Of a stretch of DNA of 64,000 nucleotides, positions 34,022-37,663 are shown one piece after another. Under the pieces are notes generated by a model that saw nothing but the letters and a program-made list of their open reading frames with translations, was not told the DNA's origin and made no database searches. Origin of the DNA: Patescibacteria group bacterium (lineage in GTDB: Bacteria > Patescibacteriota > UBA1384 > XYA2-FULL-43-10); the NCBI GenBank assembly GCA_041674405.1, contig JBAYVT010000001.1, positions 1,012 through 65,011 on the forward strand, read 5' to 3'. A program made the translations under genes and the position numbers. Position 1 is the stretch's first letter. The number at the start of each line of letters is the position of its first letter.

Positions 34022-34832
34022 TAATTCGATAAAAATTATCCTCGCAGGTGAAGGTGGCCAAGGGGTTCAAACAATTGCTAAGGCATTGTTTAATGCTGCA
34101 ATTTCTGCTAAATACAATGTTTCATACATTCCCTCTTTTGGTGTCGAACAGCGCGGTACGCCATCTGTGGCTTATATTACGCTGTCTCACGGCCAAATAC
34201 GTTATCCCCGTTTCGAATTTGCTGATGTGGCGCTTGTCATGGGAGAACGAGCAATGGATCGTGTAGCAGGGGTTATCAATCCGAATACGAAGCTGATTTT
34301 CGATACCTCAAACATGGACACAAAAAATTTAAAAAAGCCTTGGGTTAAACGGCTTGGCGTTCCGGCTACCAGATATGCTTTAGAAAAATTTTCACCGAAA
34401 TCATATAACGTATTAATGTATGGTGCTTTGTGCAAAGAGCTTGGTTTTGACCCAAAGATATCGTGGGATTCCATACATAGCATTTTGAAAGATAAATTTA
34501 AAACCAAGGAAATTGCAGAAATGAATCACGATGCGTTTTCTTTCGGTTATGAAATTGTCTTTGAACACAAGAATTTTTCCAAGCCAATCTATGAGACCAA
34601 AAAGACAGATAATATTTTTAGAAATGCCGAAAAGATCGCCACGATCTCGCCCGAAAGATGCAAGGGTTGTGGAATCTGCATAGAAAAATGTCCAGTTAAG
34701 GCATTATCTTTTGGTGAAGATTTGGGTGTGTTCTCCACTCCGGTTCCAGATATTAACCTTGAAAAATGTATCGCTTGTGGCAATTGTCGACGCTACTGTC
34801 CCGACGGGGCGATTAAAGTTGATAAAAAATAA
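34014..34832 (+). CDS. 2-oxoacid:ferredoxin oxidoreductase gamma subunit fused to 2x[4Fe-4S] ferredoxin (delta)
   Basis: Gamma-like ILAGEGGQGVQTIAKA N-terminus. C-terminal CKGCGICIEKCP and CIACGNCRRYCP clusters. Internal ATG chosen so the gene starts 8 nt before the beta stop. Confidence 0.7.
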   Translation: MNNNSIKIILAGEGGQGVQTIAKALFNAAISAKYNVSYIPSFGVEQRGTPSVAYITLSHGQIRYPRFEFADVALVMGERAMDRVAGVINPNTKLIFDTSNMDTKNLKKPWVKRLGVPATRYALEKFSPKSYNVLMYGALCKELGFDPKISWDSIHSILKDKFKTKEIAEMNHDAFSFGYEIVFEHKNFSKPIYETKKTDNIFRNAEKIATISPERCKGCGICIEKCPVKALSFGEDLGVFSTPVPDINLEKCIACGNCRRYCPDGAIKVDKK

Positions 34833-34839
34833 ATTTAAA

Positions 34840-34876
34840 ATAAAAAATCTGCCTGAATCAAGGGCGGTTTTTTATT
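34840..34876 (+). terminator. Weak rho-independent terminator after OFOR operon
   Basis: A-run, 5-bp stem cugcc/ggcgg (one G-U), then a T6 run. Confidence 0.35.
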
Positions 34877-35065
34877 TTGGTGGACCCGATCAGACATTAG
34901 AACCCGTTTCACTCTTTCGAAACCCTCGGTTCCGAATAACCTCCTATACGGGCAACTCTTGTTTCCCGACCCCTTCCGGAGCTCAAGCCTTCTCTTTGGG
35001 GAGAACAAATTAAAATAGAGTCGCAAGGACTCATTTTATTCTGGTGGACCCGATCAGGCTTGAAC
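34869..35065. repeat. 24-bp direct repeat (ttttatt[t/c]tggtggacccgatcag) duplicating the tRNA-Ala 3' end; att-like
   Basis: Copies at 34869-34892 and 35042-35065, 1 mismatch, bracketing about 150 bp. The second copy is the real tRNA-Ala 3' end plus 8 nt downstream. Confidence 0.5.
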
Positions 35066-35119
35066 TGACGACCTCCTCGATGCCATCGAGGCGCTCTAGC
35101 CAACTGAGCTACGGGCCCA
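35042..35119 (-). tRNA. tRNA-Ala (anticodon GGC), CCA encoded
   Basis: Hand-folded: acceptor gggcccg/cgggtcc, D-arm gctc-agttggcta-gagc, anticodon stem cctcg/cgagg with loop atGGCat, T-arm gtcag-ttcaagc-ctgat, discriminator A, CCA. Confidence 0.8.
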
Positions 35120-35244
35120 AAATTAACTAATAACTTAAAACTCAAAAGTTAAAACTGAACTAATTTACTATACCTAATTACCAATAATTAATCAATCCAG
35201 AGAGTATATTTCTGTGTTGATCAGTGCGAAAAATCAGAGAAATT

Positions 35245-35769
35245 TTATTCAATACAGCACTCAATTGCACGCTTTACGACCGCACCTATTTTACCAAGAA
35301 AACCTTTGCCTTTTTCTTCGTGTCGATTGATTTTGGCATCTTCAATTTTAGAAATATTTTTGGAATCGACAATTTTCATATTTAGCGCCCAAAATAATGA
35401 GTACAGATCAAAGGCTTTTTCATAAAATTCTTCTGCCTGTTTGCGGTTTTTTTTGAGATTGACCTTATTTCCCACTTCGATAAGCCGCATGGATGCTGCC
35501 AAAAGATGCTTTGAAAGGCACCAGATCTCGCCTTCGGGCTCTTTAACCAATTTTTGCATGACTTCTTTGCGTATCTCGCGAACTTCTTTTAGCATATCGA
35601 AATACTTTGTTTTGTTCGTTTTTTCAGCGGTAAAATAAAAATGTTCTTCGATTGAAACCAGGTTCATTACAGCAATTGAAAGATCTTCATCAAGAGAAAG
35701 GTCAAAACCTTTTTCTTTTGACTCTTCTACTTTTTTGATTAACTTTTGAATTTCTTTGTCATTTGCCAT
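35245..35769 (-). CDS. Hypothetical protein (174 aa, helical, Lys/Glu-rich)
   Basis: Host-like codon usage. No family recognised. Confidence 0.45.
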   Translation of the reverse strand: MANDKEIQKLIKKVEESKEKGFDLSLDEDLSIAVMNLVSIEEHFYFTAEKTNKTKYFDMLKEVREIRKEVMQKLVKEPEGEIWCLSKHLLAASMRLIEVGNKVNLKKNRKQAEEFYEKAFDLYSLFWALNMKIVDSKNISKIEDAKINRHEEKGKGFLGKIGAVVKRAIECCIE

Positions 35770-35773
35770 AAAT

Positions 35774-36343
35774 TTATTTTATTACTTTTATTTGAATAAG
35801 ACCGTGTATCAGCAAACTGCCGATGAGGATATATCCGACCGGCATAGCAATTTTCTGGAACGGAAAGTATGAATGATTGTGGTTTTTTCGTTTTAACGTA
35901 TTGTAATTTACCAGTGCTAGGACAAATAAAACGGACCCCGCTATCATTCCATCCAGCAATCGATCAATTCCCAAAAAAGTATTTTTAGGGTGTCCTATAA
36001 TACCGGTGTAATAAAGCGGTAAGATTGTAATAAAATATAGTGCCAAAGCGGCTAGAGGATAAATATATCTTGGCTCGACTTTTTTTGATTTCATCCAATT
36101 GAACATCCAGAAAGTAAGAGAAACCATGAGGGCGCCGATCCACATTCCGGTGATAAGATCATCGATCTTAAAATATCGAGAAAGCCCAAGCCCTGCAGCT
36201 ACAGCAACAGTACAAACTGGGCAAAAAGCGCTAACAGCAGTAGGAACTAGCGCAATTATCCCAGCAATTGCGATTGCATAAAATTTTGATGATCTTAGCT
36301 TCATAGGCAAAATAATCATATACAAAAATAATCCTGATTTCAA
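35774..36343 (-). CDS. Membrane protein (189 aa, about 5 TM, CPVC motif)
   Basis: Hydrophobic helices. FCPVCTVAVAAG. Confidence 0.45.
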   Translation of the reverse strand: MKSGLFLYMIILPMKLRSSKFYAIAIAGIIALVPTAVSAFCPVCTVAVAAGLGLSRYFKIDDLITGMWIGALMVSLTFWMFNWMKSKKVEPRYIYPLAALALYFITILPLYYTGIIGHPKNTFLGIDRLLDGMIAGSVLFVLALVNYNTLKRKNHNHSYFPFQKIAMPVGYILIGSLLIHGLIQIKVIK

Positions 36344-36475
36344 TAGAAATATCAGATTAAATTATAAATAAGCCGTCGAAATTGGTGTGTGATCTCTTGT
36401 ATATCATTCTAAAGAAATTTTTAGGTTAGCTTGTTATGATCAAAACACTAAAAATTGAATAAAGGGTCGAAATAA

Positions 36476-36510
36476 CAAAAGCAGGCCATTGGCCCGCTTT
36501 TGTTGTATTT
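36476..36510. other. Long A/T-flanked hairpin (aacaaaagcaggcc-attg-ggcccgcttttgtt)
   Basis: 14-bp stem with 1 mismatch and a 4-nt loop. Could be a bidirectional terminator or the end of an unannotated small RNA. Confidence 0.3.
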
Positions 36511-36623
36511 AGGCTTAAATTAGGGTAAATTATACTGGTATTTGGGCATTTAGTCCCGATGCGTGCCGATCGGGATTCCGAAAGTGTTGCTCTTCGGGAC
36601 TCAAAGCGTAATTCTAAATATTT

Positions 36624-36698
36624 GGTCGCTTAACTCAGCGGTAGAGTGCTTCGTTCACATCGAAGAAGTCACTGGTTCGAATCCAGTAGCGACCACCA
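36624..36698 (+). tRNA. tRNA-Val (anticodon CAC), CCA encoded
   Basis: Hand-folded: acceptor ggtcgct/agcgacc, anticodon stem cttcg/cgaag with loop ttCACat, T-arm actgg-ttcgaat-ccagt, discriminator A, CCA. Confidence 0.8.
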
Positions 36699-36805
36699 GA
36701 ACACTCTGATGAGGCCACCCCGACCAGTCGGGGTAATGCCCACCATTCGACTTTCGGTCTTCGCCTGAATCATATGATAAACCAAACTAATATTCAATCA
36801 AAAAA

Positions 36806-36836
36806 TGCCCGCCAGGGCCTTTTGTTTTTATAGACC
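36806..36836. terminator. Bidirectional terminator between tRNA-Val and island G gene
   Basis: aaaaaatgcccgccagggccttttgttttt: short GC stem flanked by A and T runs. Confidence 0.35.
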
Positions 36837-36897
36837 ATGAACGACCCCTTGTGGAGGTCGTCAGGCACTTCTTCTTGGAAGCCAAGAGATTCGGCTT

Positions 36898-37263
36898 CTA
36901 GGCGATATAGGGACACGGTTTGCCATTCTCATGGATTCCGTGGCAAAGACCACAGACGTACTTGTCTGCGAATACCTCTTGTGGGTGGGCTTTGGGCGGC
37001 TGGTCTTTGAGTGTATAGTGCTCGCCGTTGAAGTCCCAACACATACTAGGACACCACTGCCTAGCCCTCTCGGGAGTATTTCTTACAGCGTCGTCGCTGT
37101 CCAATGCAAACATGGCGGCGACAGCTCGTAGAACCTCCTCTCGGTTGGTCGGATCCTCGACATCCACCTCTGTCTGCGTTGGGAAGGTCCTCTCTGGAAA
37201 GTAGACCCTGATGCGGTGTTTTTCTTCCATGGTGGCGGGTGTCTCACTCCTTTCGTGCGACAC
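36898..37263 (-). CDS. Hypothetical protein, high-GC island G (121 aa, Cys-rich C-terminus)
   Basis: GC about 56%. CPSMCWDF...CGLCHGIHENGKPCPY. Located 200 nt downstream of tRNA-Val. Confidence 0.45.
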   Translation of the reverse strand: MSHERSETPATMEEKHRIRVYFPERTFPTQTEVDVEDPTNREEVLRAVAAMFALDSDDAVRNTPERARQWCPSMCWDFNGEHYTLKDQPPKAHPQEVFADKYVCGLCHGIHENGKPCPYIA

Positions 37264-37369
37264 CTAATTTATATAACATTTCTGTGTATTCGTCAATGAT
37301 ACCTGGTCAAATAGATTTGAATTTAGATTAATGTTATGATTAATTTGGATCATAATTCAGGAGGGAAAT

Positions 37370-37663
37370 ATGCAAATAAAAGAACTTTTAGCCAAAGGTA
37401 AAGAAATCTGGGGCGAACCGGCGGAGCCAATCACGCTCTCATATATTATCGTTCGGATGGGAAAGGTTTTTGGCGACATTTGTCGATGGGAGCGCAATGC
37501 GCCCAAAGACGCCTCTGTCCACTCAGATGACGACTTAAAAAAGGAGCTAGGTAATATAATATTTAGCACGATAAGATGGTGTGATGACCTCGGATATGAT
37601 CCTGAAGAGTGCATCAATCTTGCTATTAAGTGTCAAGAAGACGGTCATGCTAAGCTTGCATAA
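37370..37663 (+). CDS. MazG-like nucleotide pyrophosphohydrolase domain protein (small)
   Basis: 97 aa all-alpha. Spacing of EExxE/DxxE-like acidic residues (ERNAPKDASVHSDDDLKKELGNIIF) resembles MazG-like/YpjD proteins. Confidence 0.45.
   Translation: MQIKELLAKGKEIWGEPAEPITLSYIIVRMGKVFGDICRWERNAPKDASVHSDDDLKKELGNIIFSTIRWCDDLGYDPEECINLAIKCQEDGHAKLA

Follow-up and report, generated by a model that had tools for sequence, protein, structure and literature searches.

Why is the 3′ end of a transfer RNA (tRNA) gene present twice, with a short stretch of protein-free DNA enclosed between the two copies? The question is raised by the tRNA-Ala(GGC) locus of a Patescibacteria group bacterium (GenBank assembly GCA_041674405.1, contig JBAYVT010000001.1, positions 1,012 to 65,011 of the forward strand); the whole stretch of 64,000 nucleotides (nt) that was analysed is called the window. 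An earlier note on this DNA took the repeat for the trace of a tRNA-targeted integrative element, either decayed or in the form of a mini-element or small RNA. The latter possibility fits best, and the decayed tyrosine-integrase island is unsupported. According to the reading favoured here, the repeat marks a protein-free insertion module of about 164 bp behind tRNA-Ala(GGC), a non-autonomous mini-element targeting tRNA 3′ ends, whose internal antisense copy of the tRNA T arm would be the target match or a folded attachment site. This reading is given an even chance of being right.

The duplication itself is real. A repeat search places its two 24-nt copies at 34870-34893 (TTTTATTTTGGTGGACCCGATCAG) and 35034-35057 (TTTTATTCTGGTGGACCCGATCAG), identical at 23 of 24 positions and 164 nt apart from start to start. 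The second copy had been correctly recognized as the genuine tRNA-Ala(GGC) 3′ end with 8 nt of flank; the positions first given were one base off for the first copy and eight bases too far to the right for the second (35042-35065). Read on the minus strand, the repeat consists of CTGATCGGGTCCACCA followed by [G/A]AATAAAA, which comprises the T-stem 3′ strand, the acceptor 3′ strand and ACCA of the tRNA, together with the 8 nt of flank. An exact 16-mer of the repeat occurs in the 64-kb window only twice, in the two copies, and the chance expectation for a 24-mer with one mismatch was calculated as about 1e-8; an extension of the repeat beyond 24 nt is not significant in the window (p=0.32). The segment between the copies (34894-35033) has 140 bp and a G+C content of 48%, compared with 41% for the window, and holds no long open reading frame (ORF) with homologs, in agreement with its first description as GC-rich and non-coding. 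The concatenated six-frame translations of this insert have zero homologs among 5.8 billion proteins, and its reading frames give no Pfam signal. Base for base, the same sequence is present in two more independent assemblies (ENA ERZ27247358 and JGI 3300037067), and such an arrangement, found in three independent assemblies, is therefore not an assembly artefact.

The origin of the repeat can be judged from close relatives, which were fetched through the neighbouring 174-amino-acid (174-aa) protein. Fetched loci of the Candidate Phyla Radiation (CPR) are designated by L-numbers, and the percentages given for relatives are amino acid identities in this protein. In L085/L086 (90%), a tRNA-Ala identical to that of the window is followed directly by AAACTTGAAACCGCGTTTAGCGGTATTTTTTT, and in L160 (84%) the tRNA end ...CTGATCGGGTCCACCA is followed by AATAAAAATCCACCACCGGTGGTTTTTTATTT; these sites have no second tail and no 140 nt. 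L085 and L160 are the two closest relatives that reach the tRNA end, and in both the tRNA-Ala runs directly into a terminator. In the window, the distal copy has a flank, AAATAAAAAACCGCC...TTTTTTATTTT, that is similar to the native flanks of L085 and L160. The empty sites, together with the native-like distal flank, show by comparison of sequences that about 164 bp of lineage-specific DNA were added in the lineage of the window, and the earlier view of the repeat as the bracket of inserted DNA, for which a comparison of this kind had been proposed, is supported in that the closest relatives lack the segment. Most simply, the distal copy with its strong bidirectional terminator would be the original tRNA end.

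The added DNA is not unique to this locus. A survey of 165 tRNAs in 94 CPR loci for copies of their own ends within 400 nt found 10 copies in 193,620 positions, compared with 1 in 373,532 control positions, an enrichment of about 19-fold; nine of the ten are copies of the 3′ end and lie downstream. One insert, at L135:3516-3705 behind tRNA-Gly(GCC), is homologous to the insert of the window, and an identical sequence is present in L136, which comes from another sample. L135 represents a distant CPR genome, whose 174-aa protein is only 53% identical to that of the window. The two inserts align over about 105 nt with a local score of 65, compared with 18 for shuffled sequences (standard deviation 2.9, maximum 36, n=3000), and the L135 unit, with 143 nt and no ORF, is homologous along its length to the 140 nt of the window. 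The shared core, about 70-100 nt long, has the order GGAAGGGGUC, hairpin H1, UuUAGGA, hairpin H2, GAGUG, an extra hairpin (in L135 only) and ACGGGU. The consensus of H1 is CGGGrAAC-4 nt-GUUsCCCG, and that of H2 is UUnnnAACC-GAG-GGUUnnnAA, in which the variable pairs are C-G, G-C and G-U in the window and three times A-U in L135. Two of these changes are fully compensatory and one is a half change (G-U/A-U), which is suggestive of a conserved fold, two sequences not being statistically decisive. A covariance model of the core scores 94-98 bits on the copies of the window, L135 and L136 (93.6 for that of the window). Comparison of the loci thus shows that two distant genomes have, behind different tRNAs, a unit that contains no gene and has a structured, conserved core.

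Directly 5′ of the core, each unit contains an antisense copy of the T arm of the adjoining tRNA, called here S′, which lies 2-3 nt upstream of GGAAGGGGUC in both members and occupies the same alignment columns. In L135, S′ (GGCAAGCAGAATCGAACTG) is the exact reverse complement of nt 51-69 of tRNA-Gly (19/19, p<0.001). In the window, the stretch of S′ matching nt 53-63 of tRNA-Ala includes the unusual T loop TTCAAGC. Two further inserts have an antisense segment of the cognate T arm, that of the tRNA-Leu in L135 (12/13, p=0.003) and that of the tRNA-Asn in L121 (10/10, p=0.008). An antisense cognate T arm is therefore present in four of the four inserts bracketed by a duplicated tRNA tail, and in all four S′ spans the point of the tRNA at which the direct repeat begins, i.e., its left boundary. 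The duplicated tail also follows the local tRNA: it is a perfect repeat of 59 nt in L135 (11 nt of tRNA and 48 nt of AT-rich flank), degenerate thereafter, and of 24 nt in the window. As judged from the sequences, the antisense segment and the duplicated tail have been re-specified for the local tRNA in each copy.

Two folds are predicted for these parts. The T arm and S′ are inverted and 55-75 nt apart, and in a single strand they would pair as a long hairpin, far more stable than those of shuffles (L135, z=-6.9; window, z=-4.7). Alternatively, the S′ of L135 can pair with the duplicated tail and thereby close a fold like a cloverleaf, which encloses the core hairpins (z=-4.1). The L135 copy has terminal inverted repeats of about 12 bp that close the unit, and the window copy is without a closing stem. 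The sole mismatch of S′ in the window and one pair of H2 are G-U on the tRNA-sense strand and A-C on the other strand, so that the structure reads better on the strand of the tRNA. Two observations on other tRNA tails can be added. At L135:8646-8748, the tRNA-Leu mentioned above, a tRNA-Leu(TAG), has a tail-plus-flank repeat of about 60 nt with its antisense T-arm piece, and in four related loci (L100, L103, L109 and L110) 12 nt of the tail of tRNA-Gly(TCC) are repeated 22 nt behind it. The coordinates of the features at the locus of the window are collected in Table 1. Its terminator is shared with an oxidoreductase gene, the gamma subunit of which has its best genome matches, at ≤55% identity, among metagenome-assembled genomes of Berkelbacteria/Patescibacteria; the genome of the window belongs to the CPR and is Berkelbacteria-like.

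Table 1. Features of the tRNA-Ala locus and of the insertion module, with positions in the window
Feature	Position	Strand	Basis or remark
tRNA-Ala(GGC), functional, G3:U70, CCA encoded	35042..35118	-	ARAGORN; Rfam tRNA 59.3 bits; identical to L085 tRNA-Ala
T-arm segment AGTTCAAGCCT, tRNA nt 53-63, sense partner of the antisense copy in the insert	35056..35066	-	
Proximal repeat copy: final 16 nt of the tRNA + GAATAAAA	35034..35057	-	repeat search
Small hairpin GAGTCcttgcGACTC then TATTTTAATT, terminator-like, bidirectional, directly after the tRNA	35008..35032	-	
S′, antisense T loop/T stem of tRNA-Ala, AGGCTTGAGCT, 10/11 to the reverse complement of AGTTCAAGCCT	34980..34990	-	
Conserved core in common with L135/L136: GGAAGGGGUC, H1, UAUAGGA, H2, GAGUG	34908..34979	-	alignment, consensus fold, covariance model
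Hairpin H1	34949-34968	-	consensus fold
Hairpin H2, UUCGGAACC-GAG-GGUUUCGAA	34916-34936	-	consensus fold
Conserved ACGGGU, then variable stretch of ~10 nt up to the distal repeat; weak T-loop-like similarity (GTTCtAAtG)	34894..34907	-	
Distal repeat copy: CTGATCGGGTCCACCA + AAATAAAA	34870..34893	-	flank like that natively behind tRNA-Ala in L160 and L085
Intrinsic terminator, bidirectional, also serving the convergent 2-oxoacid:ferredoxin oxidoreductase gamma/delta gene ending at 34832	34849..34877	.	

The insert of L121 links this architecture to small nucleases of the GIY-YIG family. It consists, in order, of the tRNA-Asn, a hairpin, an 81-aa GIY-YIG ORF (PF01541, E=5e-17), the antisense T-arm segment, a structured stretch of about 45 nt and a tail copy of 21 nt; its non-coding part comprises about 100 nt. 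In the CPR loci, 10 of the 12 small GIY-YIG ORFs found by tblastn lie within 600 nt of a tRNA (the loci with this association are L012, L014, L084, L099, L114, L115, L121, L141 and L156). In L121 and L114, complementary flanks enclose the ORF. At other loci (L084:1972-2470; L012:7093-7560; L115:1400-1900, also L099 and L156; L014:7520-7906) the GIY-YIG gene is accompanied by a complete replacement tRNA, for alanine or histidine. The pair is nested in a tRNA-like shell, in which a short hairpin takes the place of the anticodon loop, and this shell hairpin is directly repeated on both sides of the cassette. Judged from its layout, the pair looks like a homing cassette that would break a tRNA gene and supply the substitute. 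A search of the literature gave no account of the motif of core and S′, nor of GIY-YIG/tRNA cassettes of CPR bacteria. Compared with the leaders of GIY-YIG cassettes, the insert showed only a weak match with L084 (p=0.016 before correction for 18 tests), which was not relied on.

Taken together, these features are interpreted as those of one member of an undescribed family of small non-autonomous elements homing to tRNA 3′ ends. We infer its mobility and mechanism from the arrangement of its parts. S′, in antisense, and the duplicated tail, in sense, would match the target on either side of the junction, which lies at the T loop/T-stem 3′ strand. They could fold against the T arm of the tRNA itself or against each other, and such a folded or paired structure would provide the attachment site, or the guide, for a nuclease or recombinase supplied in trans. 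Small tRNA-linked GIY-YIG nucleases are the obvious candidates for this enzyme, since one is encoded inside the L121 analogue and ten of the twelve such ORFs lie beside tRNAs. The long duplication of variable length (24 nt in the window, at least 59 nt in L135) may result from recombination or repair at the tRNA tail. The duplicated tail would keep the tRNA intact; once transcribed, tail and tRNA may also be competitors for the antisense segment. The module lies within the tRNA transcription unit, upstream of the strong terminator, and the window copy would be co-transcribed as a trailer of the tRNA. This copy is probably old, degenerate and now immobile or inert, given that its S′ is imperfect (10/11) and a closing stem is missing.

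A stronger version of this mechanism, a protein-free element homing under the direction of a guide, would represent a new class of nucleic-acid-guided mobile element in ultra-small bacteria. In this version, S′ would be a re-programmable guide fused to a conserved scaffold, present as RNA or as single-stranded DNA in folded form. A nuclease or recombinase acting in trans, e.g., a tRNA-linked GIY-YIG protein, would be brought by the scaffold to the chosen tRNA 3′ end, and the duplicated tail would protect the function of the tRNA. We regard this version as speculative and improbable.

Several results weigh against a mobile module. Only two independent members are homologous in sequence, that of the window and that of L135/L136, and sampling was confined to the surroundings of the conserved 174-aa gene, which is why both were found near it. 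The covariation measures for these two sequences are reached by 121 of 500 shuffles and are not significant. The covariance model found no further members in 625 kb of CPR loci or among viral-contig candidates. Scans of viral contigs with the conserved motifs gave 6, 24 and 82 candidates, none of which is a real member by the covariance model. Scans for exact patterns of the insert, of both junctions and of the element-type core returned zero matches in viral contigs and zero in metagenome contigs, and blastn of phages and plasmids gave no match. In the window, S′ taken by itself is not significant (8 exact or 10/11, p=0.057). The tRNA-Leu insert of L135 and the insert of L121 have only the architecture and a short GRAGGG motif in common with the unit of the window. 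No mobilising enzyme is obviously linked to either homologous copy, the flanking ORFs of L135 being without annotation, and no excised form, circular junction or polymorphism within a species was seen.

The best-placed of the other explanations is that the core and its surroundings form a conserved structured RNA, a tRNA trailer or small RNA that is a functional gene and not mobile. Here, S′ would pair with the T arm of the precursor, the duplicated tail would be a competing decoy or a tRNA-like 3′ end, and the pattern of presence and absence would reflect the gain and loss of a regulatory RNA. The high conservation of the core between genomes that differ so strongly in the 174-aa protein argues for such an RNA, as do the hairpins with their compensatory changes, the two G-U pairs favouring the tRNA-sense strand, the alternative pairing of S′ with the tRNA or with the duplicated tail, and the position of the module before the terminator of the tRNA unit. 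However, about 70 other loci in which the gene neighbourhood is the same, those of the closest relatives included, lack the core. Searches with Rfam (15) of the window, the region and L135 returned tRNAs only, the insert being unmatched at E values up to 10 (window) and 5 (L135), so that the Rfam test once suggested for the segment gave no family. The fold of the window copy is no better than that of shuffles (z=-0.41 and -0.93). Moreover, the perfect 59-nt duplication in L135, which includes 48 nt of AT-rich flank, points to a recent DNA event and not to a long-conserved RNA. The explanation by a functional RNA is thus rather unlikely. A tmRNA (transfer-messenger RNA) or a permuted tmRNA was also considered; ARAGORN makes no such call.

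As a second alternative, the insert could be the ORF-less remnant of a free-standing GIY-YIG homing-endonuclease cassette, from which the nuclease gene has been deleted and only the non-coding ends are left. The cassette in L121 has the architecture of the window insert, and the sizes are compatible, with about 100 nt of non-coding sequence in L121 and 140 nt in the window; the frequent location of small GIY-YIG ORFs near tRNAs is in keeping with this origin. The window also holds what appears to be a second remnant. In L087 and L159, a two-hairpin motif breaks into tRNA-Ala after nt 10, and a GIY-YIG ORF stands behind it. The same motif stands in the window at 36543-36615 (+), upstream of the tRNA-Val at 36624-36698. 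There, a type-1 tRNA-Val(CAC) breaks off after its first 10 nt, GGGCATTTAG; the two hairpins come next (TCCCGATGCGTGCCGATCGGGA; TTCCGAAAGTGTTGCTCTTCGGGA), and behind them lies another tRNA-Val, which is functional. The association of this motif with a GIY-YIG ORF in L087 and L159 argues that 36543-36615 is a second ORF-less, tRNA-associated remnant. Against such an origin of the insert, no GIY-YIG coding sequence was detected in it in any frame (tblastn, Pfam), and it has no significant sequence similarity to the non-coding parts of L121. The homologous unit of 143 nt in L135 is also without an ORF, and two independent deletions are unlikely. Loss of a nuclease gene is therefore a doubtful account of the insert.

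The tRNA-Ala locus is highly variable among close relatives, which speaks for the insertion module and, in the case of L084, bears on a third explanation as well. In L084 (85%), a GIY-YIG gene and a foreign tRNA-Ala are nested in a broken tRNA-like shell at this locus, and downstream of the tRNA-Ala (L084:2329-7880) lie genes for a large serine recombinase, a DUF87/TrwB-like ATPase, Replic_Relax and DUF3768. This stretch is an integrative, possibly conjugative, element at the same tRNA-Ala site. L157 and L158 are identical in the 174-aa protein and the upstream DNA and diverge inside the tRNA-Ala at about nt 27, with differences in the anticodon stem, the T arm and the flank; on comparison of the two sequences, the tRNA gene contains a recombination breakpoint. 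Several contigs of relatives in Logan/ENA also stop inside these tRNAs.

According to the third explanation, which had been put forward in the earlier note, the insert is the decayed remnant of a tyrosine-integrase island or prophage in the 3′ end of tRNA-Ala, of which attL and attR and little else are left. The sharp-edged direct repeat starting from the T-stem 3′ strand, the empty sites in relatives, the native-looking flank kept by the distal copy and the recombinase-bearing element at the same locus in L084 all speak for such an event. The element of L084, however, uses a serine recombinase and has no sequence in common with the insert. In the window, no recombinase or integrase was found in the ORF list by eye or by Pfam on the unknown ORFs, and the segment and its surroundings yielded no coding remnant. 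That a homologous unit just as small stands at a different tRNA in a different genome argues against the independent decay of a large element, and an internal antisense T arm is, to our knowledge, not a feature of attP arms. The genes at 35245-36343, once thought to be possible cargo, are conserved CPR genes instead. The 174-aa protein (35245-35769, minus strand) has 5302 homologs across CPR bacteria and is without a Pfam domain, and the 189-aa membrane protein (35774-36343, minus strand), which has a CPxC motif, is kept beside the 174-aa gene at many loci; such wide conservation shows that the two genes are not the cargo of an element. A decayed integrase island is quite improbable.

The last alternative regards the repeat as the scar of a local rearrangement, in which the distal copy is the tail of a decayed tRNA, either a duplicate of tRNA-Ala or a type-2 tRNA-Val, left behind by an inversion in which this genome differs from L085/L164. 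The block that starts with tRNA-Ala, contains the genes of the 174-aa and membrane proteins and ends with tRNA-Val (34870-36700) does lie the other way round in L085/L164. The tRNA-Val of L164, with a tail that is 15/16 identical, lies in the same place and orientation beside the oxidoreductase gene, and at a threshold of 80% ARAGORN draws a cloverleaf of 73 nt (34882-34954) that ends in the distal copy, a result reached in register in 21 of 5000 shuffles. This scar is highly improbable, since the interior is not significantly similar to tRNA-Ala or tRNA-Val (p=0.1-0.4), a decayed tRNA would not keep a tail of 23/24 with the rest randomised, and the supposed acceptor 5′ strand, GCCCG, belongs to H1 and is kept in L135, where pairing with the tRNA-Gly tail is impossible. 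For the latter reason the cloverleaf is treated as secondary, probably a by-product of H1. A decayed tandem tRNA was likewise rejected, as neither tRNA-Ala nor tRNA-Val nor any of 184 tRNAs compared is significantly similar to the insert outside the repeat.

Further observations concern the tRNA-Val at the other end of the inverted block. Three sequence types of tRNA-Val(CAC) substitute for one another among the relatives compared (L085, L161, L162 and L164). In L085 and L161 the type-1 gene is a pseudogene; in L162 it appears intact, although the contig stops within it. The type-2 tRNA-Val and tRNA-Ala are nearly identical in their 3′ halves and differ at position 3 (A3-U70 compared with the alanine identity pair G3-U70). 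Directly after the 3′ end of the tRNA-Val of the window lies a G+C-rich islet (36699-37270 and 37370-37663; 52% compared with 41%) with an ORF of 121 aa (36898-37263, minus strand) and then one of 97 aa, neither of which has a Pfam match or a homolog in the fetched loci. L085 and L160 have other G+C-rich ORFs after tRNA-Ala; the idea that the ORF beside tRNA-Val is their homolog was not upheld by comparison.

The small module is of interest for several reasons. tRNA genes are classic landing sites of mobile DNA, and the known agents carry an integrase and measure kilobases; here the unit has about 140 nt and no gene. Its antisense segment changes with the adjoining tRNA, and if the module is mobile, the choice of target would be written in nucleic acid and not in protein. 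If the reading as a tRNA-targeting module is true, it would show a turnover of tRNA loci in CPR bacteria despite their tiny genomes, and it would offer a candidate substrate for the many small GIY-YIG proteins encoded beside their tRNA genes. Should the insert be a functional trailer RNA, by which the T arm is masked and unmasked, it would represent an undescribed control of tRNA maturation.

Duplications of tRNA 3′ ends in the form of attL and attR are left by prophages, genomic islands and archaeal plasmids and viruses. The module resembles them in the repeat of the tRNA 3′ end starting from the T arm, the intact tRNA and the displaced tail that keeps its native flank. It also resembles them in the presence and absence among close relatives and in the role of tRNA loci as hot spots. 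A comparable heterogeneity within a population at an archaeal tRNA locus was caused by a recombinase-bearing element (PMC3293823). Unlike attL/attR pairs, the module has no integrase or cargo and only 140 nt between the repeats, its repeat runs into the flank (at least 59 nt in L135), and it contains an internal antisense T arm and a conserved structured core.

In its size of about 140 nt, its non-coding and structured nature and a G+C content above that of the host, the module is similar to miniature inverted-repeat transposable elements (MITEs), such as the Rickettsia palindromic elements, Correia and RUP. It was found at two sites in two genomes (tRNA-Ala and tRNA-Gly), and terminal inverted repeats of about 12 bp are seen in the L135 copy, that of the window being degenerate (z=-0.41). 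In contrast to MITEs, its terminal inverted repeat is target (tRNA) sequence and differs between copies, and the duplication of the target, 2-10 bp in MITEs, is long and of variable length here (from 24 nt to at least 59 nt).

Free-standing GIY-YIG homing genes enter a host gene at its 3′ end and supply a new tail for it, as in fungal mitochondrial atp6/cox and for SegB of phage T4 in the tRNA region. The host gene here also stays functional through a tail copy on the side of the element, with the old tail displaced downstream, and the L121 analogue does contain the ORF; the units of the window and L135, in contrast, are ORF-less. We know of no counterpart of the antisense T-arm segment in described homing cassettes.

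Folded single-strand attachment sites are represented by the attP(+) of CTX-phi, in which two inverted dif-like sites lie about 90 nt apart, and by the attC of integrons. The module likewise has two inverted target-like sites, 55-75 nt apart and predicted to fold into a long hairpin, but its target is the T arm of a tRNA instead of dif or attI, it is far smaller, and no link to Xer or IntI is shown. Guide-bearing systems include the homing CRISPR RNA (crRNA) of type V-K CRISPR-associated transposons (CAST) directed against tRNA genes, the bridge RNA of IS110 and the omega RNA of IscB/TnpB. Common to these and the module are a variable target-complementary segment beside a conserved structured scaffold and an insertion just downstream of a tRNA. 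Unlike them, the module has no effector gene (Cas12k, DEDD recombinase, TnpB/IscB) nearby, its target duplication is long, and it shows no Rfam or sequence similarity to their RNAs. The likeness to guide-bearing elements and folded attachment sites is one of logic only. In its footprint the module resembles attL/attR, from which the lack of integrase and cargo sets it apart, and in size it is MITE-like; it is filed here as a variant of tRNA-targeted mobile DNA.

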